Assembly: GCA_964342815.1 (NCBI GenBank)
Contig: CAYFHS010000033.1
Location: forward strand, 16,597 to 47,871
Length of the DNA: 31,275 nucleotides
Source of the DNA: an uncultured archaeon
GTDB lineage: Archaea; Thermoplasmatota; Penumbrarchaeia; JASLWR01
Reading direction: 5' to 3'
Of the stretch, positions 9,837 to 30,618 are shown in pieces (positions within the stretch are counted from its first letter, which is position 1; every line of letters begins with the position of its first letter). A program made the position numbers and the translations under genes. Under the pieces are notes generated by a model. That model searched no databases. It was not told the origin of the DNA and was given only the letters and a program-made list of their open reading frames with translations.

Positions 9837-10250
9837 TCAGGATATCGAATGATGTCCCTCCATCATTTTATTTGCTTCATGGATTTCATTGATTCTGATT
9901 CTTTTATCGTAAACAATGGCTTGAGCAAAGGCCACAGAATTGCTATGAGATAGACTAACCTGCATTACAAGATCATTTGTGTCATCTAAATTCACCTTTA
10001 CCATTGGAACACCGTTGGCATCGTTCAATATCTCGATATTTTCCACCCGCGCTTCTACTTTACGGTGTGACAGTGCCTTTACCATTGCTTCTTTTGCGCA
10101 AAACCTGGCAGCCAAATGCTTCTTTGGATCCGCTCTGCTGAAACAATATTCTATTTCATTTGGAGTGAAGATCCGCTCGAGGAACTTGCGATCATCAATT
10201 ATCTTTTGAAAACGCTCGATCTCCTCACAATCCACGCCTATGGAAATCAT
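9837..10250 (-). CDS. acpS: Holo-[acyl-carrier-protein] synthase (AcpS-type phosphopantetheinyl transferase)
   Basis: MISIGVDCEEIERF (GxD), RIFTPNEIEYC, HLAARFCAKEAMVKAL (FxxKEA), VQVSLSH-like 'MQVSLSHS'. Start moved to ATG 10250 by family length. Confidence 0.92.
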   Translation of the reverse strand: MISIGVDCEEIERFQKIIDDRKFLERIFTPNEIEYCFSRADPKKHLAARFCAKEAMVKALSHRKVEARVENIEILNDANGVPMVKVNLDDTNDLVMQVSLSHSNSVAFAQAIVYDKRIRINEIHEANKMMEGHHSIS

Positions 10251-10443
10251 CCAAACAACATCCGTTTGATAGTATCTCGCCGGTTTAAAAGAACCGAACA
10301 AAACTTATATTCTTTTTGGTCAAACATCGGGTAACGAATGACTTCGACAAATCAGAAATTATAAATATTGAGATACTATTCCAGCACGACGGTGAGCCGA
10401 TGCTAGCTAATCTCTTTGAAGAACAGAATCATGGAGATAATAA

Positions 10444-10911
10444 ATGAGATTTTTCTTGATCGATCGAGTCGAAGAAATTTGCTATGAAAAATACATCACA
10501 GCAATTAAATGCATAACCCTTTCCGATGACGTTTTCGAACATCATTTCCCACGGTACCCCGTATTTCCCGGAAGCCTGCTCATTGAAGGGTTGGCCCAAT
10601 TAAGCGGTATGTTTCTTGAATTGATTTTGAAGAAAAATCAACTTCCTCCCAAACTTTCGTTCCTCTCCATAGTGAATAAAATGAAATTCCGCAAACCCGT
10701 CCTGGCCGGTGATCGTGTTTTTATGAGGGCAGATATTGTTTCGCTGAGGGAGGATTACGGAGTCGTCAAGGTATTAGCCGAGATTGATGGCGAAGTTGTT
10801 GCCGAAGGGGAGCTTACATTCGCCTTTCTGAGCCTGGATGATGAGAAACTACATCAATCACGGATGGAATTTTATGAAATATGTATGAAAAATGCGAGAG
10901 AAGTTTCATGA
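10444..10911 (+). CDS. fabZ: FabZ/FabA-family 3-hydroxyacyl-ACP dehydratase (hotdog fold)
   Basis: 'FFLIDRV', 'HHFPRYPVFPGSLLIEGLAQ' (His/Glu dyad), 'KFRKPVLAGD'; GGAG SD upstream. Confidence 0.88.
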   Translation: MRFFLIDRVEEICYEKYITAIKCITLSDDVFEHHFPRYPVFPGSLLIEGLAQLSGMFLELILKKNQLPPKLSFLSIVNKMKFRKPVLAGDRVFMRADIVSLREDYGVVKVLAEIDGEVVAEGELTFAFLSLDDEKLHQSRMEFYEICMKNAREVS

Positions 10912-11498
10912 AAGTGACATTTGATTCTTACAAACCCGGCGAAGAAATTCCCGTGGTTCAATATCTCAAGAACAGAAAACTGAGAAAATATTTCAATCGC
11001 GAAACCGAGGCCGCCCTTGTCGGGCTTGGAAAGTTGACCCGGAAGATTGAACTAACTCCGGAAACACCGTTCTATTATGCAACCGGGGTGATGGAATATC
11101 AAGATTACGGCCTTGAGGAAATTGTCAAGAACAGTACCGATGGGACAGGTGATTTCTCTCACAAACTCTTTATTGAAGAAGCCATTCCAAGAGTATCACC
11201 GTTAAATTTATTCAAGGTACTGCAGAATATGGCATTGAGCTTTATCGCCATAGAACACAATCTTGTAGGGGATAATGCGGTCATTTATGCCTCTGCATCC
11301 GGTCTGCTACTTCTGGCTTTGCATTCTTTATCCAATAATCCAATGCTTCTGGGGGCCAGCAAAACCTATAAAGACGGAAAAGTCGAGGCCGGATTTGCAT
11401 ATGTAGTGAAGGAGGAAATTGAGAAATCTCCCTTTTTATACGGCACGGAGAAGGCAGTAGATATGTTTCGATCATGGGCAACAAACCGAGGGGATTGA
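10908..11498 (+). CDS. Truncated, catalytically dead ketosynthase-like protein (N-terminal KS half; chain-length-factor-like)
   Basis: ATGA overlap with the fabZ stop. 'SPLNLFKVLQNMALSFIAIEHNLVGDNAVIYASASG' resembles the KS 'P....M.N......I.....GPN....ACASG' with Cys replaced by Ser. The C-terminal His-His half is absent. Confidence 0.65.
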   Translation: MKVTFDSYKPGEEIPVVQYLKNRKLRKYFNRETEAALVGLGKLTRKIELTPETPFYYATGVMEYQDYGLEEIVKNSTDGTGDFSHKLFIEEAIPRVSPLNLFKVLQNMALSFIAIEHNLVGDNAVIYASASGLLLLALHSLSNNPMLLGASKTYKDGKVEAGFAYVVKEEIEKSPFLYGTEKAVDMFRSWATNRGD

Positions 11499-11500
11499 TC

Positions 11501-12706
11501 ATGGGCAGAGTGGTGATTACTGGAGTGGGAGCGGTATCCCCTATAGGAAATAACTTCGAAGAAGTAATGGAAGGGATTCGAAATGGGAAAAGGGGGATCG
11601 GGACAATTCAAAGTATTGACCCCTGTCATTTACCCGGCAATGTTGGTGCGGAAGTAAGGAAAAATGGAAAACCTCTCCTGACCGAATCTCATATTGACCG
11701 GAAAGAGATATTTATCACTCAGGCTCTAGATGAACTTATTAAAGGGTACGGAAGGATCCATCGGTACCCTCCGGAAAAGAGATTCATGCATATGGGCGCA
11801 GGGCACGATTATCTGGATCTGATCGGATATACCAATAATCACGATGAAGCCGCGGGTAATTGGATCAATTATTCAAAGAGCGGCCATATTATAGTGAAAG
11901 AGCTTTCCAAAGTTCATGAAATCAAGGGCGGATTCAGCGTCAATGTGACCACATGTGTCGCTGCCACCCAGGCCATGGGAACTTCTTTCAGGCTGCTGAA
12001 ACAGTTATCCGCAGGGAATATTATTATTACCGGTGGTTTTGATTCCGTAATCAATCATTTGCACTATATGGCTTTTTACAAACTCGGAGCCATGTCAAAC
12101 TGGAAGGGAGAGCCGGGTCATGCCTGTCGTCCTTTCGATAAAAATCGGTCCGGATTGGTTTTGGGGGAAGGAGCGGGAGTTTTTCTGCTGCAAGATGCCG
12201 AAGATATGGCTGCCGGGGAAGGTCTTGCGGAGATAGTGGGGTACAGCTCCACAATGGATGCTTACAAGGTAACGGACCCCCACCCTCAGGGAAAACATCT
12301 GGCCAGAGCTGCCGTAAATGCCATTGAAGAAGCAGGGTTGAGATCTGCCGATATTGATTGCGTGCACCTGCATGGGACCGGCACATATAAAAATGCCATT
12401 GCCGAAACGAATGCCATGCAACAGATATTTCCCGAGCGCTGGGCTGAAATCCCGGTGTTCTCCATGAAAGGACAGATCGGTCACCTAATTGGGGCATGCG
12501 GCGCCCTTGAAATGATTGGTGTGATATATTCATTAAAATATCAGCTGGTACCGCCCACCGTCAATTTCAGCGAACAGGCCCCCGAGGCCCCCCTGCTGGT
12601 CATTAAGGATAAACCTCTGGAAATGAAAATAGACCATATACTGAAATTAAATTCTGCCTTCGGAGGGCAAAACAGTGCGTTAGTGGTGAAAAGATATGTC
12701 GAATAG
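11501..12706 (+). CDS. fabF: Beta-ketoacyl-ACP synthase (FabF/FabB family)
   Basis: RVVITGVGAVSPIG; catalytic Cys in 'VTTCVAATQA'; 'CRPFDKNRSGLVLGEGAG'; His in 'HGTGT' and 'KGQIGHLIGACG'; 'NSAFGGQN'. Start set at ATG 11501, 2 nt after the upstream stop. Confidence 0.9.
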   Translation: MGRVVITGVGAVSPIGNNFEEVMEGIRNGKRGIGTIQSIDPCHLPGNVGAEVRKNGKPLLTESHIDRKEIFITQALDELIKGYGRIHRYPPEKRFMHMGAGHDYLDLIGYTNNHDEAAGNWINYSKSGHIIVKELSKVHEIKGGFSVNVTTCVAATQAMGTSFRLLKQLSAGNIIITGGFDSVINHLHYMAFYKLGAMSNWKGEPGHACRPFDKNRSGLVLGEGAGVFLLQDAEDMAAGEGLAEIVGYSSTMDAYKVTDPHPQGKHLARAAVNAIEEAGLRSADIDCVHLHGTGTYKNAIAETNAMQQIFPERWAEIPVFSMKGQIGHLIGACGALEMIGVIYSLKYQLVPPTVNFSEQAPEAPLLVIKDKPLEMKIDHILKLNSAFGGQNSALVVKRYVE

Positions 12707-13415
12707 AATCATAATTACCGGTGCCAGTTCAGATATTGGCCTGGCCATTTGCAAAGCGATCATAAAAAAGGGGGATCAGGCTGTTTTGCAGTACTACAAG
12801 AATAAAGAAAAATTAATTCCATTATGTGAGACGTTAGGGGATAGCTGTCAGATGATATCCGTAAATTTTAATGAGGGGCGCGAGCTTAGCAGGTTTTCAA
12901 AAAAACAAAACGATGTAGATATCCTGATCAATGCGGCGGCAGTTACCAAAACAGATCTCCTACCGGTCTTGAAAGATGAAGATATCATGCGCATGATCAA
13001 CGTCAATATTCTCTCCACCGTGAAAATGTGCCGAGCAGTGATACCAAGCATGGTGGCGAGGAGGAAGGGATGTATTGTCAATATTTCATCCGTGGCCGCT
13101 AAGAGAGGTATCAGAGGGCAAAACGTATATGCCGGAACGAAAGGATTCATCGAATCCTTCTGCCGGGCAATGGCTGCCGAATACGGCAGCAGAGGCATAC
13201 GTTTAAATAATGTCGCACCAGGGCCCATTGAGGCTGGAAGTTTAATGGAATTACTGGGTTACGGTAAAGATGAAGTTAAAAAAAGCATGGTTTCAAAAAG
13301 GCTTGGAACGCCTGAAGATGTGGCGGCAGCTGTGGCTTTTTTATGCAGTGACAAGGCCTCATACATAAATGGTAAAACCATCTCTGTGGATGGAGCATTT
13401 TGCAGGGGTGTTTAA
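12696..13415 (+). CDS. fabG: FabG-like SDR (3-oxoacyl-ACP reductase family), copy 1
   Basis: TGASSDIG (variant Gly motif), NISS, YAGTK (YxxxK), 'NNVAPGPI', 'RLGTPEDVA..V.FL.SD.ASYING..ISVDG'. Confidence 0.85.
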   Translation: MSNRIIITGASSDIGLAICKAIIKKGDQAVLQYYKNKEKLIPLCETLGDSCQMISVNFNEGRELSRFSKKQNDVDILINAAAVTKTDLLPVLKDEDIMRMINVNILSTVKMCRAVIPSMVARRKGCIVNISSVAAKRGIRGQNVYAGTKGFIESFCRAMAAEYGSRGIRLNNVAPGPIEAGSLMELLGYGKDEVKKSMVSKRLGTPEDVAAAVAFLCSDKASYINGKTISVDGAFCRGV

Positions 13416-13419
13416 CAAA

Positions 13420-13995
13420 ATGGCATCCAATTATGAGAATCTGAAAACTATTTGCCTGAGTAGAAGAAGTGTTAGAGAATTTGCCCAGAAAAATGTTTCC
13501 GCCGAAGACATTGAAAAGATAAAGACAATCGCTTACACCTCACCATATGCATCCAACCGAAAAAACTGGGAATTAGTTGTCGTAACAGATAATATGCAAA
13601 TCGGAAATATAGTAGATCTGGTGGGAAAAAGTATAAACGATCTTGGAATGAAGGTCAGAGAAGATTTGCGGGAAGGATTCTCACAATACGCAGCTCATTT
13701 CACCGAATTTGGAACGGCCCCTGCTTTGATCATTCCAACGTTCAGGATATCTCCGGGATTATCAGTAATGCTCAACGATCCGAAAGAGAATTTTGTCCGG
13801 TGGGAACGAGACAATTATGTAAAATCCATTTCCTGTGTGGCCATGCTGGTTCTTCTGGCGGTGGAAAGCCTGGGATTGGTCGGATGCTACATGACCGGTC
13901 CACTTCTTGCGGAGAAGGAAATCGGGGATATGATAAATATTAAAAAAGGTAGAAATATAGGAGCGATGATTCCCATAGGATATCGTCAATGGTGA
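13420..13995 (+). CDS. Nitroreductase-family FMN-binding oxidoreductase
   Basis: 'RRSVREF', 'PYASNRKNWELVVV', 'LLAVESLGLVGCYMTG', 'IPIGY'. Start set at ATG 13420, 4 nt after the fabG stop. Confidence 0.85.
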   Translation: MASNYENLKTICLSRRSVREFAQKNVSAEDIEKIKTIAYTSPYASNRKNWELVVVTDNMQIGNIVDLVGKSINDLGMKVREDLREGFSQYAAHFTEFGTAPALIIPTFRISPGLSVMLNDPKENFVRWERDNYVKSISCVAMLVLLAVESLGLVGCYMTGPLLAEKEIGDMINIKKGRNIGAMIPIGYRQW

Positions 13996-14044
13996 AAATC
14001 TCGATAATCCCCACGGGCTCATGGAGATTTGCAGCTTGACAATG

Positions 14045-14221
14045 TTCGCGGAATCGGGGCCTGCAGGTGCCTGAAGAACAAGTTCTTCTGCACCCTATTG
14101 GAATCTCTGATTCTATGTCGGGGAACTTTTTGTTCCAAAGGGCTCAGGAGTATCTTTGATGCCTCGGAATGTAAAGGGAACCCGAAGGGCCGATTCCGCT
14201 GAATACTTGGGAGGATCAAGA
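14045..14221 (+). promoter_or_regulatory. Structured intergenic element upstream of the ACP gene (candidate cis-regulatory RNA or MITE)
   Basis: Perfect 10-bp inverted repeat GCGGAATCGG (14048-57) / CCGATTCCGC (14190-99) enclosing hairpins at 14066-14094, 14101-14113, 14122-14136 and 14181-14189. Confidence 0.5.
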
Positions 14222-14222
14222 C

Positions 14223-14615
14223 ATGGATGTTGAAGATAAATTGAGGGAAATCCTGTTACCCGTTTTTGGACTGATTACTATCGATGAGATCAAACCGGAA
14301 CATTCATTTGTCAACGACCTGGAAGTGGACAGCCTTGATTTCATTGAGATCATGCACCTGATAGAAGTAAATTTTGGAGTGGTGATCACCCAGGACGAGA
14401 CCCTGATAGGAGGACTTAAAATCGACAAGGCCATGTTGTTCGAGGACGGTTTGTTAACCAGTGAAGGAGAGGGGCTGTTGAAAGAGAACTATCCCAAAAG
14501 AAAGGGCGACCTGAGATCGGGGATGACTAAAATCGACCTTTTTTCATTGATCACTGTCCAGGACCTTGCAAACATCATCAAAGAAAAGTTAAAGGCCAAA
14601 AAAGATAGTGAGTGA
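14223..14615 (+). CDS. acpP: Acyl carrier protein, extended type (130 aa)
   Basis: 'DLEVDSLDFIEIMHLIEVNFGV' with Ser37 in the DSL phosphopantetheine site; C-terminal 'ITVQDLANII'; ~50-aa insertion between them; GGGAGG SD. Confidence 0.9.
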   Translation: MDVEDKLREILLPVFGLITIDEIKPEHSFVNDLEVDSLDFIEIMHLIEVNFGVVITQDETLIGGLKIDKAMLFEDGLLTSEGEGLLKENYPKRKGDLRSGMTKIDLFSLITVQDLANIIKEKLKAKKDSE

Positions 14616-14638
14616 ACTGGCTGGTCACAGGAATTTTC

Positions 14639-15361
14639 ATGCTTAAAAACAAGATCGTATTTGTATCCGGCGGCTCCGGTTACCTGGGTTCTGCAATTTG
14701 TGAAAGGTGTGCCTATTATGGGGCAACGGTATATTTCTCATATTACAAAAATAAAGATCAAGCTGAAACAATGATGGAGCGGATCGAGGGATCGAAAGGA
14801 ATTAAGATCAACTTGAAGGACGTCCGGGATATTGAGGATAAGATAGAACAACTTCATAAAGAGATCGAAGGAGTGGATATCCTGGTGAATAACGCCGGAG
14901 TCAGTCAGATCATGCCGTTCCCCATGCTTGAAGAAGATGACGTGGATTTTATGATGGACTTGAATATCAAGGGTACGATTTTTCTTACTAAATCCATTAC
15001 CAGAAGAATGATAAAGCTCAAGCATGGTTCAATTGTCAATATTGGTTCAATTGCAGGACACCGCATGCTCGATGTGCCCGTACACTATGCTGTGACAAAG
15101 GCTGCAATGGCCGGGTTCACTTATTCTCTGGCCGCCCAGATGAAAAGGTATGGAATAAGAGTAAATTCCGTTGTCCCCGGTCTTCTGGAAGATGGGGTGT
15201 CGCGAGGAGTGCCAAAGGAGCTGCTGGAAGACTATCTGAACCACTGTTCTGTTGGCCGTCCGGGAACCGGTAAGGAAGTGGCTGAAGCGGTCTGTTTTCT
15301 GGCCTCAGACCGGGCGAGCTATATCAATGGACAGAATATCTTTGTTGATGGCGGTCTCTGA
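14639..15361 (+). CDS. fabG: FabG-like SDR (3-oxoacyl-ACP reductase family), copy 2
   Basis: SGGSGYLG, LVNNAG, NIGSIAG, YAVTK (YxxxK), 'RVNSVVPG', 'ASYINGQNIFVDGG'. Start could be GTG 14612 or ATG 14639. Confidence 0.85.
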   Translation: MLKNKIVFVSGGSGYLGSAICERCAYYGATVYFSYYKNKDQAETMMERIEGSKGIKINLKDVRDIEDKIEQLHKEIEGVDILVNNAGVSQIMPFPMLEEDDVDFMMDLNIKGTIFLTKSITRRMIKLKHGSIVNIGSIAGHRMLDVPVHYAVTKAAMAGFTYSLAAQMKRYGIRVNSVVPGLLEDGVSRGVPKELLEDYLNHCSVGRPGTGKEVAEAVCFLASDRASYINGQNIFVDGGL

Positions 15362-15376
15362 TAGAGGTTATTAATT

Positions 15377-16801
15377 ATGAAAACGGAAATCCTTCATTCT
15401 GAAACCAGGGCTTTGTGCCCTTCCTGCCGGGAGATTGTCAATGCTTCCATTATAGAAAAGGAGGGGCGGATCTACCTCAAGAAAATGTGCGAGGAGCACG
15501 GCGTTAGTTATGCTCTGACCTGTTCCGATCCCGAATGGTATCACGAGAGCACGAATTACGTGAAACCCGGCCAATCTCCCCTGGGCCTTAGTGTAAAGGA
15601 ATTCAAAGGCTGTCCAGATTCTTGCGGTCTTTGCCCGGAACATCAACAACATACATGCCTTCCAGTCATCGAAATAATGAGCGGCTGCGATATGGAGTGC
15701 CCAATATGTCTGAAAGATTTCGATAAATCCTTTCAAATGACGAAAACGGAGTTTAGAAATATCCTAAAACGGCTAAAAGCCTATGAACCGGACCTTAATG
15801 TAATTAATTTGAGCGGGGGCGAGCCGACCCTTCATCCTGAATTGGAAGAATTCCTGAAAATATCGGCAGAGGAAAACATCAACCAGGTAACTGTTTCCAC
15901 CAACGGGGTCAAATTATTAAACGACAAAAGGCTCAGGGAAGTTTTTAGGGAAACCGGTACCATTGCCTCTCTCCAGTTCGACGGTTTTCTTCCCCAAACC
16001 TATGAACGGTTGCGGGGTCGGGACCTTTATGATCAGAAAAAAAAGATCATTGCGGCCCTGGAAGAAGACAGCGTCAAATATTCTTTGGTTACCACTGTTG
16101 CCAAGAATATCAACGACCATGAGATAACGGATATTGTGGATTATTTTTTTCACTCCAAGGCTCTCAGTTTGATGTTCCAACCTGCAACTTTTACCGGTAG
16201 AGCCGCCGCCAATGACTTCGATCCCGATACGCTCCGCATCACGATCCCCGATATTGTCAGGGAGATCGAAAAAAACGAGAATGTCAAAAAGGGCGATTTC
16301 AATCCCATCCCCTGCTCTCACTATTCATGTTTTGCAGTATCATATTATTTAAAAGGTAAAGGTGACCCTGTTGGCTCCCCTAACTTGTCAGATGGTGACC
16401 TTACAAGCGATGATGAAAAGTATGTGAATATGAAGGACCTTTTGGGCCAAGACAACTTTATCAACATCCACACCAACCGCACATATCCGGGATTGGATGA
16501 AGAAGGATTTTCAATAATACAGGAGAGAATCTTTGGATTGTGGTCGGCGTCTGACTCCAGTGACGTCAATCAGAATGTTCTAAAGAGAATTCGCAGTATC
16601 TTTAACCAGCTCAATCGTGACTGTTTTTCTTCAAAAGAGGTTTTCGAAGAGGGGTCCAAATCCATGAAGAGCATATTCATTCACCAGCTCATGGATGTCC
16701 ACACTCTCGATATTGCCCGCCTGAAAAAATGCTGCAACCATTATGCTCTGGGAGACGGCCGCATAATACCAATGTGCGCCCAGAATGTTTTTTTCCAGTA
16801 A
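15377..16801 (+). CDS. Radical SAM protein of the tetraether lipid synthase (Tes/GDGT-MAS, MJ0619-like) family
   Basis: N-terminal CPSC...CEEHG; auxiliary GCPDSCGLCPEH; CDMECPIC radical SAM motif; GGEPTLH; TNG; LQFDG; FQPATFTGR; RITIPD; C-terminal 'HQLMD...D..RLKKCCNHY...GRIIPMC..N'. All match the Tes architecture as recalled. The family call is firmer than the function. Confidence 0.8.
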   Translation: MKTEILHSETRALCPSCREIVNASIIEKEGRIYLKKMCEEHGVSYALTCSDPEWYHESTNYVKPGQSPLGLSVKEFKGCPDSCGLCPEHQQHTCLPVIEIMSGCDMECPICLKDFDKSFQMTKTEFRNILKRLKAYEPDLNVINLSGGEPTLHPELEEFLKISAEENINQVTVSTNGVKLLNDKRLREVFRETGTIASLQFDGFLPQTYERLRGRDLYDQKKKIIAALEEDSVKYSLVTTVAKNINDHEITDIVDYFFHSKALSLMFQPATFTGRAAANDFDPDTLRITIPDIVREIEKNENVKKGDFNPIPCSHYSCFAVSYYLKGKGDPVGSPNLSDGDLTSDDEKYVNMKDLLGQDNFINIHTNRTYPGLDEEGFSIIQERIFGLWSASDSSDVNQNVLKRIRSIFNQLNRDCFSSKEVFEEGSKSMKSIFIHQLMDVHTLDIARLKKCCNHYALGDGRIIPMCAQNVFFQ

Positions 16802-16815
16802 TTTTATTATTCGCA

Positions 16816-17859
16816 TTAGCGCATCAGCATTATATTGTAAAATATCTTCAATACGCCCAAGGGCGAACTGCCGACGTAAGCGATATGTCCCTTGGAAGTA
16901 CTGAGATTCACATCCACATCCTTACCGCTATTTGACAGTTCTTTACGTATATTCAAGGTCTCTTCGGCTGAAATGAGCTTGTCCCCGGCTGCGTGCATCA
17001 GGAAAACCCGGGCTTTTATATCGGAGAGATATGAATTTAGGGAGAGATCCAATTTACACAATTGATCCGCCCGACTCATCCACCAATCAAAAACAGGACC
17101 CTCGGTGCTTTGCTTACCCAATCTTTTTATGAGCCTCTTCTCCTCCAGAGTGAAGTTATCCTCCCTCTTGCAGTAATCCGCCAATATCCCCTGAAGCAAA
17201 TTGGTATCATTTTGAGAAAGTTCTAGACATTCTCTTGCGCCCAAGGACAGGACAAGTCTAGCATAAATATCCGAGTCAGGATCGGTTAGTACCCTTTTCA
17301 TGAGGTTTTCCAAGGAGTAATAGGCCCCTGCCGCGAGAACAAAACCAACATTTTCCCTGACCTTTTCCATAGCTGAGAGAATTAGCCCATAGGTTGCGCC
17401 TGCCGAGAAGCCTATGATCCCGAAAAATTTGTGGTTCTTACTTATGGACTCTGCCATTTCCACCAAGGTTTCGATATCTTTGAAACGGAAGTCCAGGTTC
17501 GTCATGCCTTCAAGGTGAGGGGTATATACCTCGAAACCGCATAACGCCAGGTTATGTGCAAAATGTACAAGCCTCGGATCGTTGTAACCTTTGGGAGATA
17601 AACCATGGAGGACGAACAATGGGTACGAGCTGTTCTTTCCCGTATAGCATCGACTTTTATCAGTCCACTTATGATCAAAGTCCTTGACCCGGATTCGGTT
17701 GCGCAGGATCCTACCAAGACCGGCGTGAAGGGAAAGCATGTAAGCTGTATGAATTGCGGATCTAAATCTATCTCCCTGTTGTTTGGCCGTAATATGTTCA
17801 TCTCCTTGCTCGATTTTTCTTCCGATAATATCCCTGATTGGTGATTTAAATTTTTTCAA
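16816..17859 (-). CDS. Alpha/beta-hydrolase fold protein (possible esterase/thioesterase)
   Basis: 'VLHGLSPKGYNDPRL', nucleophile elbow GFSAG, 'MHAAGDKLIS' (Asp) and 'GHI' (His). TTG start is uncertain. Confidence 0.75.
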   Translation of the reverse strand: MKKFKSPIRDIIGRKIEQGDEHITAKQQGDRFRSAIHTAYMLSLHAGLGRILRNRIRVKDFDHKWTDKSRCYTGKNSSYPLFVLHGLSPKGYNDPRLVHFAHNLALCGFEVYTPHLEGMTNLDFRFKDIETLVEMAESISKNHKFFGIIGFSAGATYGLILSAMEKVRENVGFVLAAGAYYSLENLMKRVLTDPDSDIYARLVLSLGARECLELSQNDTNLLQGILADYCKREDNFTLEEKRLIKRLGKQSTEGPVFDWWMSRADQLCKLDLSLNSYLSDIKARVFLMHAAGDKLISAEETLNIRKELSNSGKDVDVNLSTSKGHIAYVGSSPLGVLKIFYNIMLMR

Positions 17860-20929: not shown

Positions 20930-21172
20930 CTATTGTACAACGGGATTCAATGGCATCACCCCGTTATGTCTTACCTTTTTCGCCCCGTACTCCCGGAGTA
21001 TTCCCTCTCTGTCATCAGGTCTTATTCTCAGTACTATCCCGCAATCGGAACTGATGTGCCGGGGAGTTGGTATGCATCTAACTGAAAATCCGGCTTTCCT
21101 TGCCACCTGTTCACCTCGAATGGCGAGGCTCGTGGAATCGAAAATAATGACAAAATAGTCGGTGTCATCCAT
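20930..21172 (-). CDS. DUF3343-family small protein (putative S/Se carrier)
   Basis: 'IIFDSTSLAIRGEQ......F.VRCIPTPRHISSDCGIVLRI' matches the F.S...A......IP.PR.IS..CG pattern; directly follows the desulfurase. Confidence 0.8.
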   Translation of the reverse strand: MDDTDYFVIIFDSTSLAIRGEQVARKAGFSVRCIPTPRHISSDCGIVLRIRPDDREGILREYGAKKVRHNGVMPLNPVVQ

Positions 21173-22342
21173 CTATCCCACCAGTTCCTCCAGCGCTTCC
21201 ACCGCAAAATCGATTTCTTCCGCTCGGTTGAAATATCCAAATCCAAATCGTACCGTTCCATGGGGAAAGGTCCCAATGGTCCTGTGAGCTGCTGGTGCGC
21301 AGTGAAGGCCCACCCTGCACAATATATTAAATTGCTCCTCGAGTAAAAGACCTATCTCGGATTGAGAACTATCTCGTATGTTTATGGAGACGACGGACGT
21401 CTGCTTTTTCACGTCCTTTCCACCGTACACATCAATGCCGTGTATGTGTTTGATCCCATCTATGAACCTGGCCGTCAGATCCATTTTCTTCTGATGGATA
21501 TTATCCACCGTTCGATCAAGAATGTAACCCAGCCCTGCCGTCAAACCGGCCAGACCCAATGCGTTCATGGTACCGCTCTCGTACTTGTCCGGAAGGAAAT
21601 CCGGATGATGCTCGGACTCGGATCGGCTCCCGCTTCCACCGGATCTCGCCCGGTTGAAACTTGCGATGTCAACATTTTCACCTATGGCGAGACCCCCGGT
21701 TCCCTGCGGACCCATGAGCCCTTTATGACCGGTGAATGCCACGAGATCGATATTGTCACGCTTCATATCGATTGGGATGCTCCCGGCAGTCTGGGCACTG
21801 TCGATCAAATATTTTATATTACTGTCCCTTGCCAAGTTCCCAATTTCTCGTAGCGGGGCCAGGCTTCCCACCACGTTGGAGCCGTGATTGACCACTATCA
21901 TCTTCGTTTCCGACGTGATGGCATTCCGGACGTCATCCGGATCGAGAAAACCTTCACTGCTGCACTTAACCACTGTTACCCGAAGCCCCTGATTCTCGAG
22001 ATCACGAAGCGGTCTCATGACCGAATTGTGCTCCATGCTGCTGGTGATGACGTGATCTTTCCGGTTAAGTAAACCCCTCATTGCCAGATTGAGTCCTTCT
22101 GTTGCATTGAGACCAAAAACAACCCTCATGGGGTCCTCAAGGTTGAAAAGTCGTGCAATATTTTCCCTGGCGAAATAAACGACTCTGCCCGCTTCCACGG
22201 AAAGGCGGTGGCCCGAGCGGCCGGGATTGGCGCCTATATTCTTCATGAAATCCAACATCGCCTCCGCAACGCAATCCGGTTTCGGCCAGGATGTAGCTGC
22301 ATTGTCGAAATAGATTATTTTCGGTCTATTTGTATCGGGCAT
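21173..22342 (-). CDS. Cysteine desulfurase / selenocysteine-lyase-like PLP enzyme (aminotransferase class V)
   Basis: 'IYFDNAATSWPKP', 'NATEGLN', 'EHNSVMRP', 'DSAQTAG', 'FTGHKGLMGPQG' (PLP Lys), 'RVGLHCAP' (persulfide Cys). Confidence 0.92.
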   Translation of the reverse strand: MPDTNRPKIIYFDNAATSWPKPDCVAEAMLDFMKNIGANPGRSGHRLSVEAGRVVYFARENIARLFNLEDPMRVVFGLNATEGLNLAMRGLLNRKDHVITSSMEHNSVMRPLRDLENQGLRVTVVKCSSEGFLDPDDVRNAITSETKMIVVNHGSNVVGSLAPLREIGNLARDSNIKYLIDSAQTAGSIPIDMKRDNIDLVAFTGHKGLMGPQGTGGLAIGENVDIASFNRARSGGSGSRSESEHHPDFLPDKYESGTMNALGLAGLTAGLGYILDRTVDNIHQKKMDLTARFIDGIKHIHGIDVYGGKDVKKQTSVVSINIRDSSQSEIGLLLEEQFNILCRVGLHCAPAAHRTIGTFPHGTVRFGFGYFNRAEEIDFAVEALEELVG

Positions 22343-22377
22343 TCGGTTATCTCCGTGGTGTCCATCTAATAAATGGT

Positions 22378-22965
22378 TTAAAACCGCACCACCTTGCCGG
22401 CTCCCAGCAGGATTTCGGCAATGGTGTAGGCATTGGATATCTCCCCGACGGCAAGCCTATCTTTGAGATCGAAAAAGTCCAGACAGGTCCCGCATACAAG
22501 TATTTCAACTCCTCCGTCCCGGAGCTTTTCAAGGTCCTCCAATGATTCTGAACCATCCACAGCCAATTTTACACCGCTGTTCATGAAAATGAACACATCC
22601 GGCTTTGGTTCGACCTCCAAAATGGAATATATGAGGGACTTCGCGAGGATGCTCCCCAGCTCGTCTTCACCTCTTCCCACGGTGTTCGAAGGGAAAAATA
22701 CCACCGTGGGGCTGGCTTTTTTCCCAAGGTCGGGCCTCGATCTTTCTTCGGATCCCTCTATCTTGCTGATTTGTAGATAATGATCCTTCCCTTTTGTGCG
22801 GACATTGACCTTGTATCCCCTCTTGATTGCTCCGCGCGATATGTTCTGTATTGCGTCATCATCGTCGACTATAACGAGCAGCTCGTCTGCGTTGCGCAGC
22901 GCTCTTCCGGTACGTATCGCAGGTTCGGGGCATTTAAGTCCCCTGAGATCCAATTCTTCAGCCAT
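22378..22965 (-). CDS. yedF: YedF-type sulfurtransferase-like protein (TusA/SirA domain plus DsrE-like domain)
   Basis: 'LDLRGLKCPEP' (TusA CPxP), 'GRGEDELGSILAKS', 'FMNSGVKLA', 'CGTCLDFF', 'GEISNAYTI'. ATG 22965 has a GGAG SD. Confidence 0.85.
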   Translation of the reverse strand: MAEELDLRGLKCPEPAIRTGRALRNADELLVIVDDDDAIQNISRGAIKRGYKVNVRTKGKDHYLQISKIEGSEERSRPDLGKKASPTVVFFPSNTVGRGEDELGSILAKSLIYSILEVEPKPDVFIFMNSGVKLAVDGSESLEDLEKLRDGGVEILVCGTCLDFFDLKDRLAVGEISNAYTIAEILLGAGKVVRF

Positions 22966-22986
22966 TATAATTGCTCCGGTGCTCAA

Positions 22987-24465
22987 CTACTTGTTTGTAA
23001 GAACGAGAAAGTATTCGCCCCCGTCCCTTGGCTCTATTTTCGAGGTCCACCCTTCGCTTTCAGCCGTTTTTTCGATGTTATCCCTTGCTTCTTTCTCGTT
23101 CACCAGTATCTCGAGAACTCCCCCTTCCATTTCCCACATCTTCTCCTGGGTCTGCCATACTGGTTCAGGGCATTGCAGACCCCGTAGATCCAGTTTTTCT
23201 CTTCGGAATTTCTTTGGATTATCATCTTCATATACAGGTTGGGGCATTCCAAGCTTTTTGAAGAATTCGGGCATCCTCCTGTTCTTAATCTTTTTCGTAA
23301 TTTCCATGGAGGTCTCTTTACAAAGCGGGAATTTCCCTTCCTGATCGAAGCCTTTTTTGAACTGTGCGTGTGCGGCTCTTACAAAACACTCGTGCCGGGG
23401 AACACAGTACCTCCCGGCCATGGCCTGGTAAGCAGCTGCGAATCCTTCCTCTTTTACGTTACCGAACGATAGAGGTATCATGTCGCAGGGAGTGACCGTT
23501 CCATCATTTTCGATGAATATGTGATAGGTTCCCGCCATACAGCCCAGCATCCCCTCGCTTTCCAGGTAGGAGTATTCGCTGATCTTGGGAAAATCCTTGT
23601 CCCTGTTGAGTTTCTTATGGTATTTCCACATCTTCTTTTCCTCGTCTGTTCCGCACCATCTTGCCTCGCGGTTACCCACCAGCTTTCCGGTGGGGATGGG
23701 CGCAAGGACCCTCACTTCGTGGACCCCGATATCCTTCAAAAAGCGGTAATAAATCGGAACCTCGCCGCCGTTGATCATCTCCTTTGTGGGAACTGCTCCT
23801 GCGATGGTATAAAGGCCCGCTTCATTGGATGCCTCGATAGCTTTCACTGCGATGTCGAATGCGCCTTCGTATCCCCGCAATTTATCGTGGATCTCCGCCT
23901 TGTAATGATCGAGGCTTATGGAAGCGGCGAACAAACCCCTCTTCTTCAGCTCTCTCGCGCGCTCGAAACCCAGTTTCTCGCCATTGGTGAACAGAATGGT
24001 ATGGGATTTTGTTCCTATGGCTTCCACGATATCTTCAAGGTCGTCTCTAAGCGTGGGCTCCCCGCCGGTGAGACCAATGAAGCAGTTACCCATGTCCTGC
24101 AGCTGCCGGATAGTGCTTATAAGAAGGTCCAGTGGAAAGTCTTCACTTTCCTCACGGCCCCAGTTGCTGCAGTGCCAGCAGGAAAAATTGCACCTGTTCG
24201 TGACGCTGATGTTGCAGGAGAACGGGAAGGTTTCACCCTTCTTCATACGTGGGATGAATCTTAGAAATCGGTCGAATGCCTCGGAGCCGAACGGCGGCAT
24301 CTGGGAATTCATCACCACCTTCCCGTCGATCTCCACGAACTTCTCGTATTTCGAAGAACTGCGCAAATACATGAGAAATCGTTTATCGAGGGCCCGGATC
24401 TCCTTTTTCCTGAGCATTTTGAGCATCATCAGGTCCTTTGCCCTGCCGATAAGAAATTTCACCAA
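22987..24465 (-). CDS. Radical SAM protein with SPASM/Twitch domain fused to a C-terminal TusA-like sulfur-carrier domain
   Basis: CNFSCWHC; GGEPTLRDD; FTNG; 'GCMAG...I..DG.VTPCD' SPASM/Twitch; C-terminal 'KLDLRGLQCPEPV....GVLEILVN...ARDNI...AESEGW'. TTG start after a GGGGGA SD. Confidence 0.88.
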   Translation of the reverse strand: MVKFLIGRAKDLMMLKMLRKKEIRALDKRFLMYLRSSSKYEKFVEIDGKVVMNSQMPPFGSEAFDRFLRFIPRMKKGETFPFSCNISVTNRCNFSCWHCSNWGREESEDFPLDLLISTIRQLQDMGNCFIGLTGGEPTLRDDLEDIVEAIGTKSHTILFTNGEKLGFERARELKKRGLFAASISLDHYKAEIHDKLRGYEGAFDIAVKAIEASNEAGLYTIAGAVPTKEMINGGEVPIYYRFLKDIGVHEVRVLAPIPTGKLVGNREARWCGTDEEKKMWKYHKKLNRDKDFPKISEYSYLESEGMLGCMAGTYHIFIENDGTVTPCDMIPLSFGNVKEEGFAAAYQAMAGRYCVPRHECFVRAAHAQFKKGFDQEGKFPLCKETSMEITKKIKNRRMPEFFKKLGMPQPVYEDDNPKKFRREKLDLRGLQCPEPVWQTQEKMWEMEGGVLEILVNEKEARDNIEKTAESEGWTSKIEPRDGGEYFLVLTNK

Positions 24466-24677
24466 TATTATTCCCCCGCGGATGAACGCTTGAGTTCAGA
24501 TAAGGTAGGCGGAATAAATAATTTCCTCTCTCTTTTTCGTTCTGCCGGTTCCGTGGTTTGGTTATTTCAAATTTTCCCGTGGGGATAGGTCTCGGTAACC
24601 CGAAAAAAAAGGTTGTTATTACGACTTTATGAAATAATGCCGAACTATTTATATATTGTTTCGCTCTTATTTCACCC

Positions 24678-25529
24678 ATGTTCCTCGAAAAAATAAATAA
24701 AACGGAACTCAGGATACTTGAATTGATCCTAGGCCAGGTGCTACCGGAAAAAGAGATAGCAAAGGAGTTGAAACAATCTGCGTCCTGGATATCAGAATGC
24801 ATTCATCATTTAATCGATATAGGCTTCGTAGACCTGGAAAAAAAGGGGATCTCAAGGTTTGCCCGGATAAGCAACAACAGCGTTGGAACAAGTCTGAGGC
24901 TTTTGATGGAAGAGAATAAAATGCTAAATTATTATATGATTTTTCCAAATTCCGGGCTGATCATCTTGCCTCTTTTACTTAGGCCAGGTACAAAAATAAA
25001 CGAAATTTGTCTGAGAACCCATCTATCGAAGAGAGCAATTTATTACAAGATGAAAGAATGGAAAAGCATTGGATTGATCGATCTGAAAAAGTACCCGGAA
25101 AAAGTTATTCTATCCAATAACAAAACCTATTTATCGAAATTTCTGATCGAATACTGTAAAAATCGCAATCGAAGATTCTTGAATGAAACATATCCAAAAG
25201 GGAATATCGTATGGGAATGGAAAGATGAATTTCTTTTTTCAACAAAGGAAAAAATAGATAATGAATATTTCCTGCAAGCAGGTAGTACGAGATTAGAAGA
25301 GTTTGACATCGAACTATTGCACACTTCCCAATATTATTATTTCCGTATCGGAAAGGAATCGGTATCATTGGAAGAATCGCTGGTACAAACGATCAGGACT
25401 GACCCAATGAACCCAAGGCCAATAAGAATTACCCGGGAGGCGATCAAGGATAGGGCATTAAACTGTGATGTTTTGTTCGATTTCGCGAAAAAATATGGTG
25501 TTTATAAAATTTTAAAAACGAGGCTATGA
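24678..25529 (+). CDS. Tandem winged-helix DNA-binding protein; putative AbiEi-like antitoxin/regulator
   Basis: Two HTH-like blocks ('EKEIAKELKQSASWISECIHHLIDIGFV', 'INEICLRTHLSKRAIYYKMKEWKSIGLI'); stop is 1 nt from the downstream NTase start; TTTATATA box at ~24649. Confidence 0.7.
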   Translation: MFLEKINKTELRILELILGQVLPEKEIAKELKQSASWISECIHHLIDIGFVDLEKKGISRFARISNNSVGTSLRLLMEENKMLNYYMIFPNSGLIILPLLLRPGTKINEICLRTHLSKRAIYYKMKEWKSIGLIDLKKYPEKVILSNNKTYLSKFLIEYCKNRNRRFLNETYPKGNIVWEWKDEFLFSTKEKIDNEYFLQAGSTRLEEFDIELLHTSQYYYFRIGKESVSLEESLVQTIRTDPMNPRPIRITREAIKDRALNCDVLFDFAKKYGVYKILKTRL

Positions 25530-25530
25530 T

Positions 25531-26346
25531 ATGACCGGAAGGAAAGTGTATTCAGAGGATTACCTTAAACGTGAACTAGATAACATTTCATCATCGTTCC
25601 GAGATCAAGTAACCGGCTATCTCATTGGTGGATTGGCAATGATCTACCACGGTGTAAAGAATGCTACGAAAGATGTCGATATCGTTTTTGAAAATGAATT
25701 CGAAGCAATGACTTTCAAAGAAAACCTCCTAAGAAACGGATTCAAAACGGTCAATATAGTAACGAATGAATATGAGAAAATGAAAACGTTTTCCATCGTC
25801 GAAAAATCAGGGACATTTCGTTTTGATATATTTATTCGATGTGTTTGTGATAGCCTTATATTATCCAAAGGAATGATCAAAAGGGCAACGAAGGTTCCAT
25901 TATCCGGGAATTTCAACTTATTTGTTATTTCATTGGAGGACATTTTCCTTTTCAAGAGCATTACAAATCGAAACGATGATCTGAGAGACATGTCGATTAT
26001 TGCCAGTGTGGGTCTGGACTGGGAAATGATTGACAATGAATTACGAGGTCAGCCAGAGCAATGGAGATGGTATACAATCTTTTTTCAAAATATGTTGGCA
26101 TTGGAAGAGGAATATTCCATATTATCTCCACTAAAAAGCCGATTCGAAAAAGAGGCGGAGATTTCCGTGGCAATGGATGTGATCATATTAAAGCTGGAAA
26201 GCAAACCCCATACATATGATGAATTGATTGGTATTCTCGGGACGGATGATGAAACCTTTTTCAGGGATGTAATTAACCGTTTAAAGGAAAAGAATATCAT
26301 ATTCATGAAGAATGGTCATTATTTTCTTGTAGAATCCATCAGGTAG
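25531..26346 (+). CDS. Pol-beta-superfamily nucleotidyltransferase (AbiEii/MenT/DUF6036-like) with C-terminal wHTH; putative toxin
   Basis: 'YLIGGLAM..HG....TKDVDIV' (GG...TxDxD), 'RFDIF', 'LEDIFLFKSITNRNDDLRD' (K..R..D..D). Confidence 0.75.
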   Translation: MTGRKVYSEDYLKRELDNISSSFRDQVTGYLIGGLAMIYHGVKNATKDVDIVFENEFEAMTFKENLLRNGFKTVNIVTNEYEKMKTFSIVEKSGTFRFDIFIRCVCDSLILSKGMIKRATKVPLSGNFNLFVISLEDIFLFKSITNRNDDLRDMSIIASVGLDWEMIDNELRGQPEQWRWYTIFFQNMLALEEEYSILSPLKSRFEKEAEISVAMDVIILKLESKPHTYDELIGILGTDDETFFRDVINRLKEKNIIFMKNGHYFLVESIR

Positions 26347-27995: not shown

Positions 27996-29546
27996 ATGTA
28001 CGAAAGACACGATTTCTACAATGCAACCGATGATTTCATCGACCGAAATGTGCGAGAAGGCCGGGGCGACCACACTGCTCTCATATACGACGGCAGGAGA
28101 TACACCTACAGCCATCATCAAAAATTCGTGAACAAGACGGGAAATGCCCTGAAGGCCATGGGTATTGACATCGGCGACCATATTCTTCTTCTGATGCACG
28201 ACAGCCCCGAGTTCGTGGAAACCTTCTGGGGAACCATCAAGATCGGGGCCATCCCCATACCCCTGAACACCATCCTGCAGCCGGAAGATTACGAATATCT
28301 TCTGAACGATTCCCGCGGCAAGGTTCTCGTGGTACATGAATCGCTGCTTCCTAAGATCGAATCCATCACCGGAAACATCAACTTTCTGCGGGATATGGTA
28401 GTGATAAAGGAAGGCGGAGGCGCAAAACTTCCATATAACCAGATATTCAAACGGGCTTCCTCGATACTCGAACCGGCTCCCACCACCTACGACGACGTTG
28501 CCTTCTGGCTCTACAGCTCCGGCAGCACCGGGTTTCCCAAGGGAACTGTCCACCTGCAGCACGACATGGCCCATTCGGCGGATTCCTACGCGGGAAACAT
28601 CCTCGGTATCACCGAGGACGATATCATATTTTCGGCTTCCAAGTTGTTCTTTGCATACGGTCTGGGAAACAGCATGTATTTTCCGTATCATGTGGGAGCA
28701 TGCTCCATTCTGTATCCTGCAAGACCCGTGGCCAGCGCCATATTCGATGTGATCGAGAGGGAGCGGCCTACCATCTTCTTTGGAGTGCCGACGCTCTACA
28801 ACAACATGCTCGTGCACTACCGGGAAAACGCTCACAAGTACTCACCGGAAATTATGTCATCCGTAAGGCGCTGCGTATCTGCCGGCGAAGCGCTTCCCCC
28901 AAAGATATTTAAGGAGTGGAAGGACACCTTCGGCCTGGAGATACTTGACGGCATCGGTTCCACGGAGATGTGCCACATATTCATATCGAACCGTCCCGGT
29001 ATGGTCAAAACATCATCTACGGGAATGGTGGTTCCCGGTTACGAGGCAAAAATAGTGGACGAGGATTGGAACGAGCTTGCCACGGGAGAGATCGGAAATC
29101 TCGTTGTGAAGGGAGACAGCTCAGCAATATATTACTGGAGAAATCATAAAAAGACACAGAAGACCATGGTGGGGGAGTGGATCAACACCGGCGACAAGTA
29201 CTGCCGGGACGACGAAGGTTATTACTATTACGCAGGTAGATCTGACGATATGTTCAAGGTCGGCGGCATCTGGGTGTCGCCGTTCGAGGTTGAGAGTGCA
29301 CTCATCGAACACTCGGCGGTCTTTGAATGCGCCGTGGTGTGCTCGCCCGATGCCGAGAACCTCATCAAACCAAAGGCCTTTGTGGTGCTGAAGGAAAATA
29401 TATCGGCCTCAGATGAACTTGCTGAAGAGCTGAAACTTTTCGTGAAATCTAAAATTGCGCCCTACAAATATCCGCGGTGGATAGAATTCATAGAAAACCT
29501 GCCAAAAACGTCTACCGGAAAGATAACTAGGTATAAACTGAGGTAA
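27996..29546 (+). CDS. Benzoate-CoA ligase family acyl/aryl-CoA synthetase
   Basis: 'FWLYSSGSTGFPKGTVHLQHD', 'SASKLFFAYGLGN', 'SAGEALP', 'DGIGSTEMCHIFISN', 'TGDKY', 'GRSDDMFKVGGIWVSPFEVE', 'PKTSTGKI'. Confidence 0.9.
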   Translation: MYERHDFYNATDDFIDRNVREGRGDHTALIYDGRRYTYSHHQKFVNKTGNALKAMGIDIGDHILLLMHDSPEFVETFWGTIKIGAIPIPLNTILQPEDYEYLLNDSRGKVLVVHESLLPKIESITGNINFLRDMVVIKEGGGAKLPYNQIFKRASSILEPAPTTYDDVAFWLYSSGSTGFPKGTVHLQHDMAHSADSYAGNILGITEDDIIFSASKLFFAYGLGNSMYFPYHVGACSILYPARPVASAIFDVIERERPTIFFGVPTLYNNMLVHYRENAHKYSPEIMSSVRRCVSAGEALPPKIFKEWKDTFGLEILDGIGSTEMCHIFISNRPGMVKTSSTGMVVPGYEAKIVDEDWNELATGEIGNLVVKGDSSAIYYWRNHKKTQKTMVGEWINTGDKYCRDDEGYYYYAGRSDDMFKVGGIWVSPFEVESALIEHSAVFECAVVCSPDAENLIKPKAFVVLKENISASDELAEELKLFVKSKIAPYKYPRWIEFIENLPKTSTGKITRYKLR

Positions 29547-29559
29547 AGGATCGTAAAAA

Positions 29560-30618
29560 TCACTTTTCTATCACACCGGTTATGGTGGCAGCCTTCCTGG
29601 CGGCCTCCTCGCTGATACCGGGTCCCAGTATCGTGAAGCGCTCAGGTCTTATCTTGGGCGCGTCCACGATAGCTTTTACAACCATATCGTCAGGGATCTC
29701 CAGCTCGGCTGCAGTGGTGGCAAGACCTATCTTTTTCATGGCATCTCTCGTGAAAAGCCAATCCTCCCCGTGAAGATACATCATTATAATGCTGCCCAGG
29801 GCGCACTGCTCCCCGTGCAGGGCAGGTTTGTCCAGGATATGGTCGAGAGTGTGCGAGAACATGTGCTCAGCTCCGCTGGCCGGGCGCGACGATCCTGCTA
29901 TTGCCATTGCCACTCCGCCACCTAACAGAGCCTTTACCACCTTCCATGCCGATTCCTCGAGGCCCTCCTTTATGAACTCCGCATCCCGTATCAACAGCTC
30001 CGCGCTCATCTTCGCAAGCACAGCTGCATAGCTTGAAAAATGCTCGTTGGTCAATCGGTGAGATAGTTCCCAGTCCTTCACTGCCGAATAATTCGATATG
30101 ACGTCACCGTAGCCAGCAGAAAGCAATCTGAACGGGGATTTGGCAATGATACCTGTATCAGCTAGCAGCGCAACGGGGGGTCTCGCTTCCATGGATTTTG
30201 CTCTACCACCCTGATGAATGGAGGCTCTCCCGGATACTATCCCGTCATGAGAGGCCGCAGTGGGTACCGATATGAACGGAAGCCCATTGGTAAAAGCAGT
30301 GTATTTTGCAACGTCGATGGACCTTCCACCGCCTACCCCTATGGTGAATCGAGCATTCTGTTCCTTTATAACACGGTTGGTTCCGCTGATACTTCCTTCA
30401 TTGGCTCCGCTGATCTCGTAAAGACGGATCTCGTAGCCGTGTTCAACCAGCTGGTCACGAAGAGAGGATGCAGCGACCTTCCTGGTGACCGGATCACAAA
30501 CGATGACAGCATTTTTTTCCAGTTCCAACTCATCAATTATTCGGGCGGCATCATCCAGGATATTTTGTCCAATATGAACTGCTCTTGGTAAAAGAATGGA
30601 CAGCGTTTTTGAAAAAAT
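29560..30618 (-). CDS. egsA: NAD(P)-dependent sn-glycerol-1-phosphate dehydrogenase
   Basis: 'GVGGGRSIDVAKY', 'FISVPTAASHDGIVS', 'LSAGYGDVISN', 'SSRPASGAEHMFSH', 'LHGEQC', 'RPERFTIL'. The conserved N-terminal 'LPRAVHIG' lies upstream of the track start (30528), implying an ATT start at 30618. Confidence 0.92.
   Translation of the reverse strand: MFSKTLSILLPRAVHIGQNILDDAARIIDELELEKNAVIVCDPVTRKVAASSLRDQLVEHGYEIRLYEISGANEGSISGTNRVIKEQNARFTIGVGGGRSIDVAKYTAFTNGLPFISVPTAASHDGIVSGRASIHQGGRAKSMEARPPVALLADTGIIAKSPFRLLSAGYGDVISNYSAVKDWELSHRLTNEHFSSYAAVLAKMSAELLIRDAEFIKEGLEESAWKVVKALLGGGVAMAIAGSSRPASGAEHMFSHTLDHILDKPALHGEQCALGSIIMMYLHGEDWLFTRDAMKKIGLATTAAELEIPDDMVVKAIVDAPKIRPERFTILGPGISEEAARKAATITGVIEK

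Follow-up and report, generated by a model that had tools for sequence, protein, structure and literature searches.

A radical SAM-TusA fusion encoded with a SelD-free YedF relay in a marine archaeon suggests an undescribed sulfur-inserting enzyme

Radical S-adenosylmethionine (SAM) enzymes that insert sulfur into their substrates pose a long-standing question of supply, namely how sulfur is restored to an auxiliary cluster that is either consumed or binds extra sulfide. Precedents for the chemistry are found in the methylthiotransferases and LipA (PMC13066941) and in AbmM (PMC12691670), type II BioB carries a 4Fe-5S cluster held by three cysteines (PMC10813225), and the open site of the CteB cluster AC1 binds sulfur (PMC10177961). 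TusA is a persulfide carrier (PMC11073785), and YedF was reported in 2015 to be absent from archaea and to be nearly always accompanied by SelD (PMC5322559). Here, a radical SAM enzyme fused to a TusA domain is described that heads an operon with YedF, a cysteine desulfurase, and DUF3343 in a 31,275-nt window (the whole stretch of DNA analyzed) of contig CAYFHS010000033.1 (GCA_964342815.1), from a marine Thermoplasmatota genome (Penumbrarchaeia; JASLWR01). The fusion is real, conserved within a group of uncultured anaerobic archaea, directly testable, and narrow in its distribution, and together with the adjacent sulfur-mobilizing genes it suggests an undescribed enzyme that inserts sulfur into its substrate. 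Each part belongs to a known family; what is new is the radical SAM-TusA architecture, the SelD-free archaeal relay, and the tie of that relay to one enzyme subfamily. We know of no sulfur-inserting radical SAM enzyme with a fused TusA. A first, sequence-only reading of the locus did not recognize the fusion from any characterized enzyme, and in agreement no paper describing it was found in a literature search of incomplete coverage. Its two domains are already named in automated annotation of the fusion.

The host is an archaeal metagenome-assembled genome (4.35 Mb, 89% complete) whose close relatives are labelled Thermoplasmata. Four open reading frames fill positions 20930-24465, all on the minus strand and separated by 21, 35, and 0 nt, as co-oriented and tightly spaced as first read; in order they encode the fusion (gene 1), YedF, a TIGR01977 desulfurase, and DUF3343 (Table 1). 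Because contigs from three other marine samples span the radical SAM-TusA junction at 99% identity or higher, and because the same architecture recurs in 31 other 90%-identity clusters (~55-86% identical to gene 1; four or five of the clusters are partial or chimeric), the fusion is not an assembly artefact. Nor is it a one-off, an outcome that, combined with a degenerate SPASM domain, the sequence-only reading had named as fatal to its proposal; the CPxP cysteine (Cys432) is kept in 32 of the 32 fused sequences inspected. In a tree of the radical SAM core, all fused proteins fall into one clade (support 100/100) with one TusA-less sequence nested inside, the sister of this clade is unfused (93/78), and both lie in a well-supported subfamily (100/100). 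The fused TusA domains are likewise monophyletic (95/83) in a tree built on 73 columns only, in which they group with free TusA proteins encoded beside YedE (93/90) and apart from the YedF N-terminal domain and the other TusA proteins of the host. These trees indicate that the fusion arose once, and the grouping makes duplication of the YedE-adjacent TusA the most likely source of the fused domain. The wider radical SAM family comprises 529 representatives at E-values up to 1e-30, and a metagenome scan returned one relevant locus.

Gene 1 has the CX3CX2C motif and partial TIM barrel of the radical SAM superfamily (Pfam Radical_SAM, residues 86-219, E = 2e-21) and the PF01206 domain of the TusA/SirA carriers (residues 424-488, E = 7.5e-14), with a CPEP motif whose Cys432 is predicted to bear a persulfide. 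Between the two lies a partial SPASM match (residues 309-348) that covers profile positions 1-45 and ends at position 45 of 67. The spacing C309-X17-C327-X32-C360 is invariant across 107 family members, and the CX2CX5CX3C motif that marks the second auxiliary cluster of seven-Cys SPASM proteins is missing. Since no other cysteines of the domain are conserved, it is of the Twitch type, probably with one auxiliary cluster and three family-wide ligands, and the label SPASM given to it on first reading should be replaced. In alignments, C309 and C327 fall on the SkfB hairpin cysteines and on the first two AC1 ligands of CteB. C360 would be the third ligand, judging by its spacing; as a set, the three recall CteB AC1 and the type II BioB cluster. 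A further cysteine, Cys271, may accept sulfur or act as the fourth ligand of the auxiliary cluster; in some bacterial relatives, the loop around it contains cysteines that are not conserved.

The AlphaFold model of gene 1 (AF2; pLDDT 94, pTM 0.89) finds its closest solved structure in SkfB (Z 25.7, rmsd 3.7, 298 aligned residues, 23% identity). None of the named radical SAM equivalogs (AhbD, NirJ2, MftC, PqqE, SkfB, MoaA, TrsS, Tes) exceeded its NCBIfam cut-off, the best score being 100 against 500 bits. No PqqD match was found, and the predicted secondary structure of the N-terminus does not follow the order of a RiPP recognition element (RRE). No precursor peptide gene was noticed near gene 1, though no systematic short-peptide search was made. 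The first 80 residues are basic (+10) and contain amphipathic helices, which hints weakly at membrane association. A complex prediction of the radical SAM core (two 4Fe-4S clusters plus SAM) against its own TusA domain scored 0.08 against a mark of 0.32 and is used as evidence neither way.

The remaining three genes match the parts named from the sequence alone. YedF (TIGR03527, 185.9 bits against a cut-off of 110; true start, the ATG at 22965) unites the predicted DsrE-like CxxC domain, present as CGTC, with a CPEP motif that makes it, beside gene 1, the second of the two TusA-type CPxP carriers. The pyridoxal phosphate (PLP) desulfurase is confirmed by TIGR01977 (483 bits against 377) and retains the PLP lysine and the RxGxHCA motif; it falls below the cut-off for SclA (NF040779; 373.7 against 525 bits). 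The small Cys protein proves to be DUF3343, and its SSDCG motif is kept in related loci.

The link between enzyme and relay reaches well beyond this operon. Among 14 distinct fused loci, 13 have one or more relay genes in the DNA retrieved around them (desulfurase in 11, DUF3343 in 10, YedF in 9, YedE in 6), and the order and orientation of these genes vary, including one divergent arrangement; the flanking genes otherwise differ from locus to locus. Across 401 Thermoplasmatota genomes, the radical SAM subfamily occurs in five, from four families, DUF3343 in seven, and a TIGR01977 enzyme over its cut-off in five. All five subfamily genomes have both DUF3343 and a TIGR01977 enzyme (frameshifted in genome G001), and in one of them, G039, enzyme and relay are on separate contigs. 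Enzyme subfamily and relay are both absent from a same-genus genome (G003, 93% complete) and a same-family one (G002), the relay is absent from twelve genomes with only distant members of the radical SAM family, and one genome (G324) has DUF3343 only. Of the genes tested, the radical SAM subfamily follows the relay most closely, and the neighborhood link to a relay of desulfurase, DUF3343, YedF, and YedE thus holds across rearranged gene orders and across genomes. YedE (the TIGR04112 transporter) was not found in the host genome.

Table 1. Positions of the operon, its diagnostic residues, and the upstream element in the window
Feature	Position	Strand	Basis
Radical SAM/Twitch-type enzyme with C-terminal TusA domain, 492 aa, TTG start	22987..24465	-	Pfam; 31 further fused clusters; AF2
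CxxxCxxC radical SAM motif (C92, C96, C99)	24169..24192	-	Invariant in alignment A1
Predicted auxiliary cluster cysteines C309, C327, C360 (Twitch-type)	23386..23541	-	Sole invariant Cys of the domain, 107 sequences
Cys271 (W-C motif)	23653..23655	-	29/29 fused sequences of alignment A2; absent there in unfused sisters
TusA domain, CPEP Cys432 (codon 23170-23172)	23002..23196	-	PF01206; Cys in 32/32 fused; tree
YedF (TusA-DsrE; CPEP and CGTC), 195 aa	22378..22965	-	TIGR03527 over cut-off
Group II cysteine desulfurase/selenocysteine lyase-like PLP enzyme (H105-N106, K207, RVGLHCA)	21173..22342	-	TIGR01977
DUF3343, putative S/Se carrier (SSDCG)	20930..21172	-	PF11823, E 2.6e-19
Purine-rich and TATA-like element	24513..24526	-	~50 nt upstream of first gene; read from sequence

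Several features of the relay and of the sister enzymes are recorded here in their own right. Archaeal YedF proteins (P0270-P0311) share the CPEP motif of the fused TusA, and free TusA and the inspected bacterial YedF have CPQP, CPTP, CPKP, or CPRP; a co-adaptation of the two archaeal carriers to a common partner is possible. A small, probable helix-turn-helix regulator (L020:5470-5853, L023, L051, L055, and G000:C20:8474-8839) recurs beside the relay, and the same gene adjoins cysteine synthase/IscS/IscU-like genes and, in the host, LarE/MoaD-like genes, making it a candidate sulfur or Fe-S regulator. Most of the unfused sister enzymes (P0034, P0040, P0042-P0046; L051, L052, L071) end in acidic tails with two or three cysteines that often repeat Gly-Gly-Cys-Met-Gly, with free TusA/DsrE genes nearby; the tails are possibly a second solution for carrying sulfur.

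We propose, with moderate confidence, that a bacterial-type relay freed from SelD feeds persulfide sulfur to the auxiliary cluster for radical C-S bond formation. The PLP desulfurase would move cysteine sulfur onto the cysteine of its RVGLHCA motif, a transfer well known for this family, and the persulfide would then pass via YedF and DUF3343 to Cys432 of the fused TusA domain, as the behavior of the TusA family leads one to expect. In relatives, YedE and the free TusA could also import external sulfur. From Cys432, and possibly by way of Cys271, the sulfur would reach the free iron of a three-Cys auxiliary [4Fe-4S] cluster. A 5'-deoxyadenosyl radical would take a hydrogen from the substrate, the substrate radical would capture cluster sulfur to form the C-S bond, and the relay would reload the cluster; this radical chemistry and the reloading are modelled by analogy on type II BioB, MiaB/RimO, LipA, and AbmM. 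In favor of the proposal stand the Cys432 kept in every fused sequence inspected, the relay genes at 13 of 14 fused loci in varying order, their joint occurrence with the subfamily across genomes, the three family-wide auxiliary cysteines, and, in the unfused sister clade, the cysteine-bearing tails and free TusA/DsrE genes.

It should be noted that a number of points weigh against this proposal. We infer all of the catalytic steps. Cys271 could complete the auxiliary cluster and close its open site, the fusion and the gain of Cys271 are each single events, and the closest solved structure is only 23% identical. The correspondence between fusion and relay also has its exceptions: P0037 lies inside the fused clade yet has no TusA, locus L068 has the fusion without relay neighbors, and genome G060 (73% complete) has the relay with no such radical SAM enzyme found. 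The wider radical SAM family, moreover, functions without the relay. Finally, because the genomes are related and adjacent genes can move as a block, the co-occurrence is not independent evidence and no p-value is claimed.

The relay may instead only build, repair, or reduce the Fe-S clusters of the enzyme itself, whose radical reaction would be something other than sulfur insertion (e.g., C-C bond formation, dehydrogenation, or rearrangement, with a lipid or small molecule as substrate), as is probably the case in the wider family. Members of that family have these three auxiliary cysteines and most of the invariant core residues but no relay, they are often fused or adjacent to class I methyltransferases, and desulfurases dedicated to single Fe-S targets do exist, as in NifS-NadA (PMC13066941). 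However, the host has separate IscS/IscU-like genes and other desulfurases, and twelve genomes run distant family members in its absence, so a dedicated module is not needed for generic cluster assembly. The operon also has no Fe scaffold or carrier, and TusA carries persulfide rather than serving as a cluster scaffold (PMC11073785). On balance we regard a role confined to the enzyme's own clusters as unlikely, though it is the main alternative.

Alternatively, the fusion may be incidental: a YedE-TusA-desulfurase operon for sulfur assimilation, acquired horizontally, would have received the radical SAM gene, which then took up a TusA copy working alone or as a redox/sulfane sensor. The position of the fused TusA as sister to the free TusA beside YedE, its single origin, and the differing flanking genes all fit such an accident; the GC content (~50% against 45% genome-wide) is too weak as a sign of transfer. 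The accident becomes decidedly unlikely in view of the intact cysteine retained from 86% to ~55% identity across several families, the many loci that keep both a free and a fused TusA, and the gain of Cys271 along with the fusion. Relay genes also accompany the unfused sister clade, even where they lie on a separate contig.

The sequence-only reading had allowed for delivery of either sulfur or selenium and had noted the lack of selD in the window. A genome-wide search agrees on the latter, with selD in 0 of the 401 Thermoplasmatota genomes and the controls working; the best selD-like match of the host resembles ThiL. SepSecS, YqeB, and tRNA-Sec were not found in the host at 89% completeness (SelU and YqeC were not searched), and therefore no source of selenocysteine (Sec) is evident. 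The sulfur half of that idea is kept in our proposal and the selenium half finds no support in these results. One can nonetheless imagine a SelD-independent route: acting as a selenocysteine lyase, the PLP enzyme would pass selenium to the fused TusA, for use by the radical SAM enzyme in making either a C-Se bond or a cluster loaded with Se. Every relay part comes from a selenium-linked family, YedF (TIGR03527) and the YedE of relatives (TIGR04112) having both been described as such (PMC5322559), and substrate preference is unreadable from sequence. SclA prefers Sec, and its H100N variant, matching H105-N106 here, stays active on Sec (10.1101/2020.02.07.939272). In addition, the nearest bacterial YedF that was followed (53% identity, labelled Poribacteria) lies in an operon of selD, double-cubane reductase, activase, desulfurase, YedF, and DUF3343; the simplest reading is that the module is of bacterial origin and was later uncoupled from SelD. 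Beyond the missing selD and Sec genes, the score of the desulfurase under the SclA cut-off and the in-frame TGA codons of two relatives, at non-Cys positions, make the selenium route very unlikely.

The TGA of one relative (L025:8001-9479; CP070726.1) splits the fused gene just before C309 and replaces a Gly, and that of L027 interrupts a distant homolog. Read-through as Sec is ruled out by the non-Cys positions, leaving nonsense changes or errors; like the frameshift in the G001 desulfurase (L053:10445-11628), these codons may reflect sequencing errors or decay.

A further possibility, extremely unlikely, makes the radical SAM enzyme a maturase and has the whole module serve some metallocofactor with genes elsewhere (Mo-hydroxylase, double-cubane 8Fe-9S reductase, LarE client, or lipoyl carrier): the bacterial module does stand beside a double-cubane reductase, 5 of 5 module genomes have a homolog of it and GcvH, and the host has five Mo-hydroxylase subunits and LarE, but double-cubane homologs occur in 38 of 311 Thermoplasmatota genomes (25 over the NF040772 cut-off), mostly without the module, Mo-hydroxylases are found in two of the five module genomes and missing from three, which sets aside their maturation as a shared purpose, and the host already encodes an MtaB-type enzyme, BioB, and LipS1/LipS2-like proteins separately from the module. 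Mo-hydroxylase, double-cubane, and lipoyl/biotin targets were all rejected as they do not explain the distribution of the module. The double-cubane homologs (e.g., G000:C18:4540-5643) occur in a phylum where selD was not found, and bacterial ones are almost always with SelD. Host contigs C4, C44, C46, C50, and C9 (G000) hold two LipS1-like and two LipS2-like lipoyl synthases, four GcvH-like proteins, and BioB.

The basic, amphipathic N-terminus of gene 1 and the lipid/isoprenoid and methyltransferase neighbors of its relatives weakly favor a membrane-associated small molecule as substrate. Several sister and fused loci encode a polyprenyl synthase, an FAD oxidase/CCG pair, a GNAT protein, an M28 peptidase, and a membrane protein, DQLID. 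These genes prompted the idea of methionaquinone or prenyl-quinone thiolation, which was set aside as a general account since searches found no DQLID in G000 (the host), G001, or G401, and no GNAT or M28 ortholog in the host. A 2025 preprint on archaeal lipid radical SAM enzymes is unrelated, concerning B12-radical SAM enzymes.

Fusions to class I methyltransferases, or such genes alongside, recur in the wider family (P0053, P0112, P0149, P0155, P0183, P0190, P0220, P0230; L059-L062). The DQLID-type membrane protein (~207 aa; L010:4887-5510, and in L051, L052, L056, L057, L071) adjoins members of the family, even distant ones, and has the invariant motifs K-x-x-D-x-x-I-D, K-x-D-H, D-E, and H-R; searches gave no Pfam, PDB, or fold match for it (Foldseek E > 0.3, best VIA Z 7.6). 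Loci L056 and L057 have two tandem family members with a third radical SAM gene, a carotenoid-biosynthesis membrane protein (PF04240), and a reductase-like gene.

Around the operon, the element at 24513..24526 is probably an archaeal promoter, and TTTATT-like boxes also occur upstream in several related loci; a promoter and terminator scan of the locus was uninformative, its consensus being bacterial and the host archaeal, and no RNA holder was listed for the operon. Upstream of the operon, a winged-helix protein and DUF6036 nucleotidyltransferase pair (window 24678-26346, GC 36-38%) is probably an inserted module, and positions 27996-30528 hold a benzoate-CoA ligase family gene and the glycerol-1-phosphate dehydrogenase EgsA; locus L021 likewise has an AMP-binding gene upstream of its operon. 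Positions 9837-17859 hold an acyl carrier protein (ACP)-dependent type II fatty acid/polyketide-like cluster, in an archaeon, with genes for AcpS, a FabZ-like protein, KAS, two FabG, a nitroreductase, ACP, a radical SAM enzyme, and an alpha/beta hydrolase, followed by an FtsX/MacB double permease. The radical SAM gene of this cluster (15377-16801) is Tes/TrsS-like at 270 and 260 bits, under both cut-offs, and the cluster was not seen at other fused loci.

If our sulfur-insertion proposal is true, a persulfide carrier would be built into a Twitch enzyme. A stretch of 3.5 kb encodes the enzyme, its carrier, and the desulfurase, and the system could be reconstituted from four proteins. YedF, DUF3343, and TIGR01977 enzymes are known almost only from selD neighborhoods, and a SelD-free setting with a candidate client tests how specific they are to selenium. 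The fusion also provides a first handle on a widespread, uncharacterized radical SAM family, and the operon may point to a sulfur-containing metabolite or lipid in anaerobic Thermoplasmatota.

Compared with the bacterial YedE/TusA/YedF/SclA-like/DUF3343 module (known from SelD-containing anaerobes, PMC5322559, and from E. faecalis SclA), the present one is alike in its families over their cut-offs (TIGR03527, TIGR01977, TIGR04112, PF11823), its motifs, and its clustering; unlike it, the module here is archaeal and SelD-free, and its partner is a radical SAM enzyme in place of selD and a double-cubane reductase. The relatives resemble YeeE-YeeD (TsuA-TsuB; PMC11073785), in which the CPxP cysteine of YeeD carries sulfur adducts, in placing a TusA-family gene next to a YedE/YeeE-family transporter; their transporter, however, is of the TIGR04112 subfamily (36.5 against 400 bits for TsuA), and the host has none that was found. 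Gene 1 shares with the thioether-forming maturases SkfB and CteB the first two aligned auxiliary cysteines and the three-Cys pattern, but differs in its predicted lack of RRE order, the absence of a second auxiliary cluster, and scores far under the cut-offs of those families, and a carrier, not a substrate cysteine, would be its source of sulfur. With type II BioB (4Fe-5S; PMC10813225), LipA, LipS1/S2, MiaB/RimO/MtaB, and AbmM, the proposed shared logic is a cluster-bound sulfur that is captured by a substrate radical and resupplied from cysteine, although these sulfur-inserting enzymes belong to different sequence families (AbmM structure 8wm2: E = 5.9e-9, Z 15.7).

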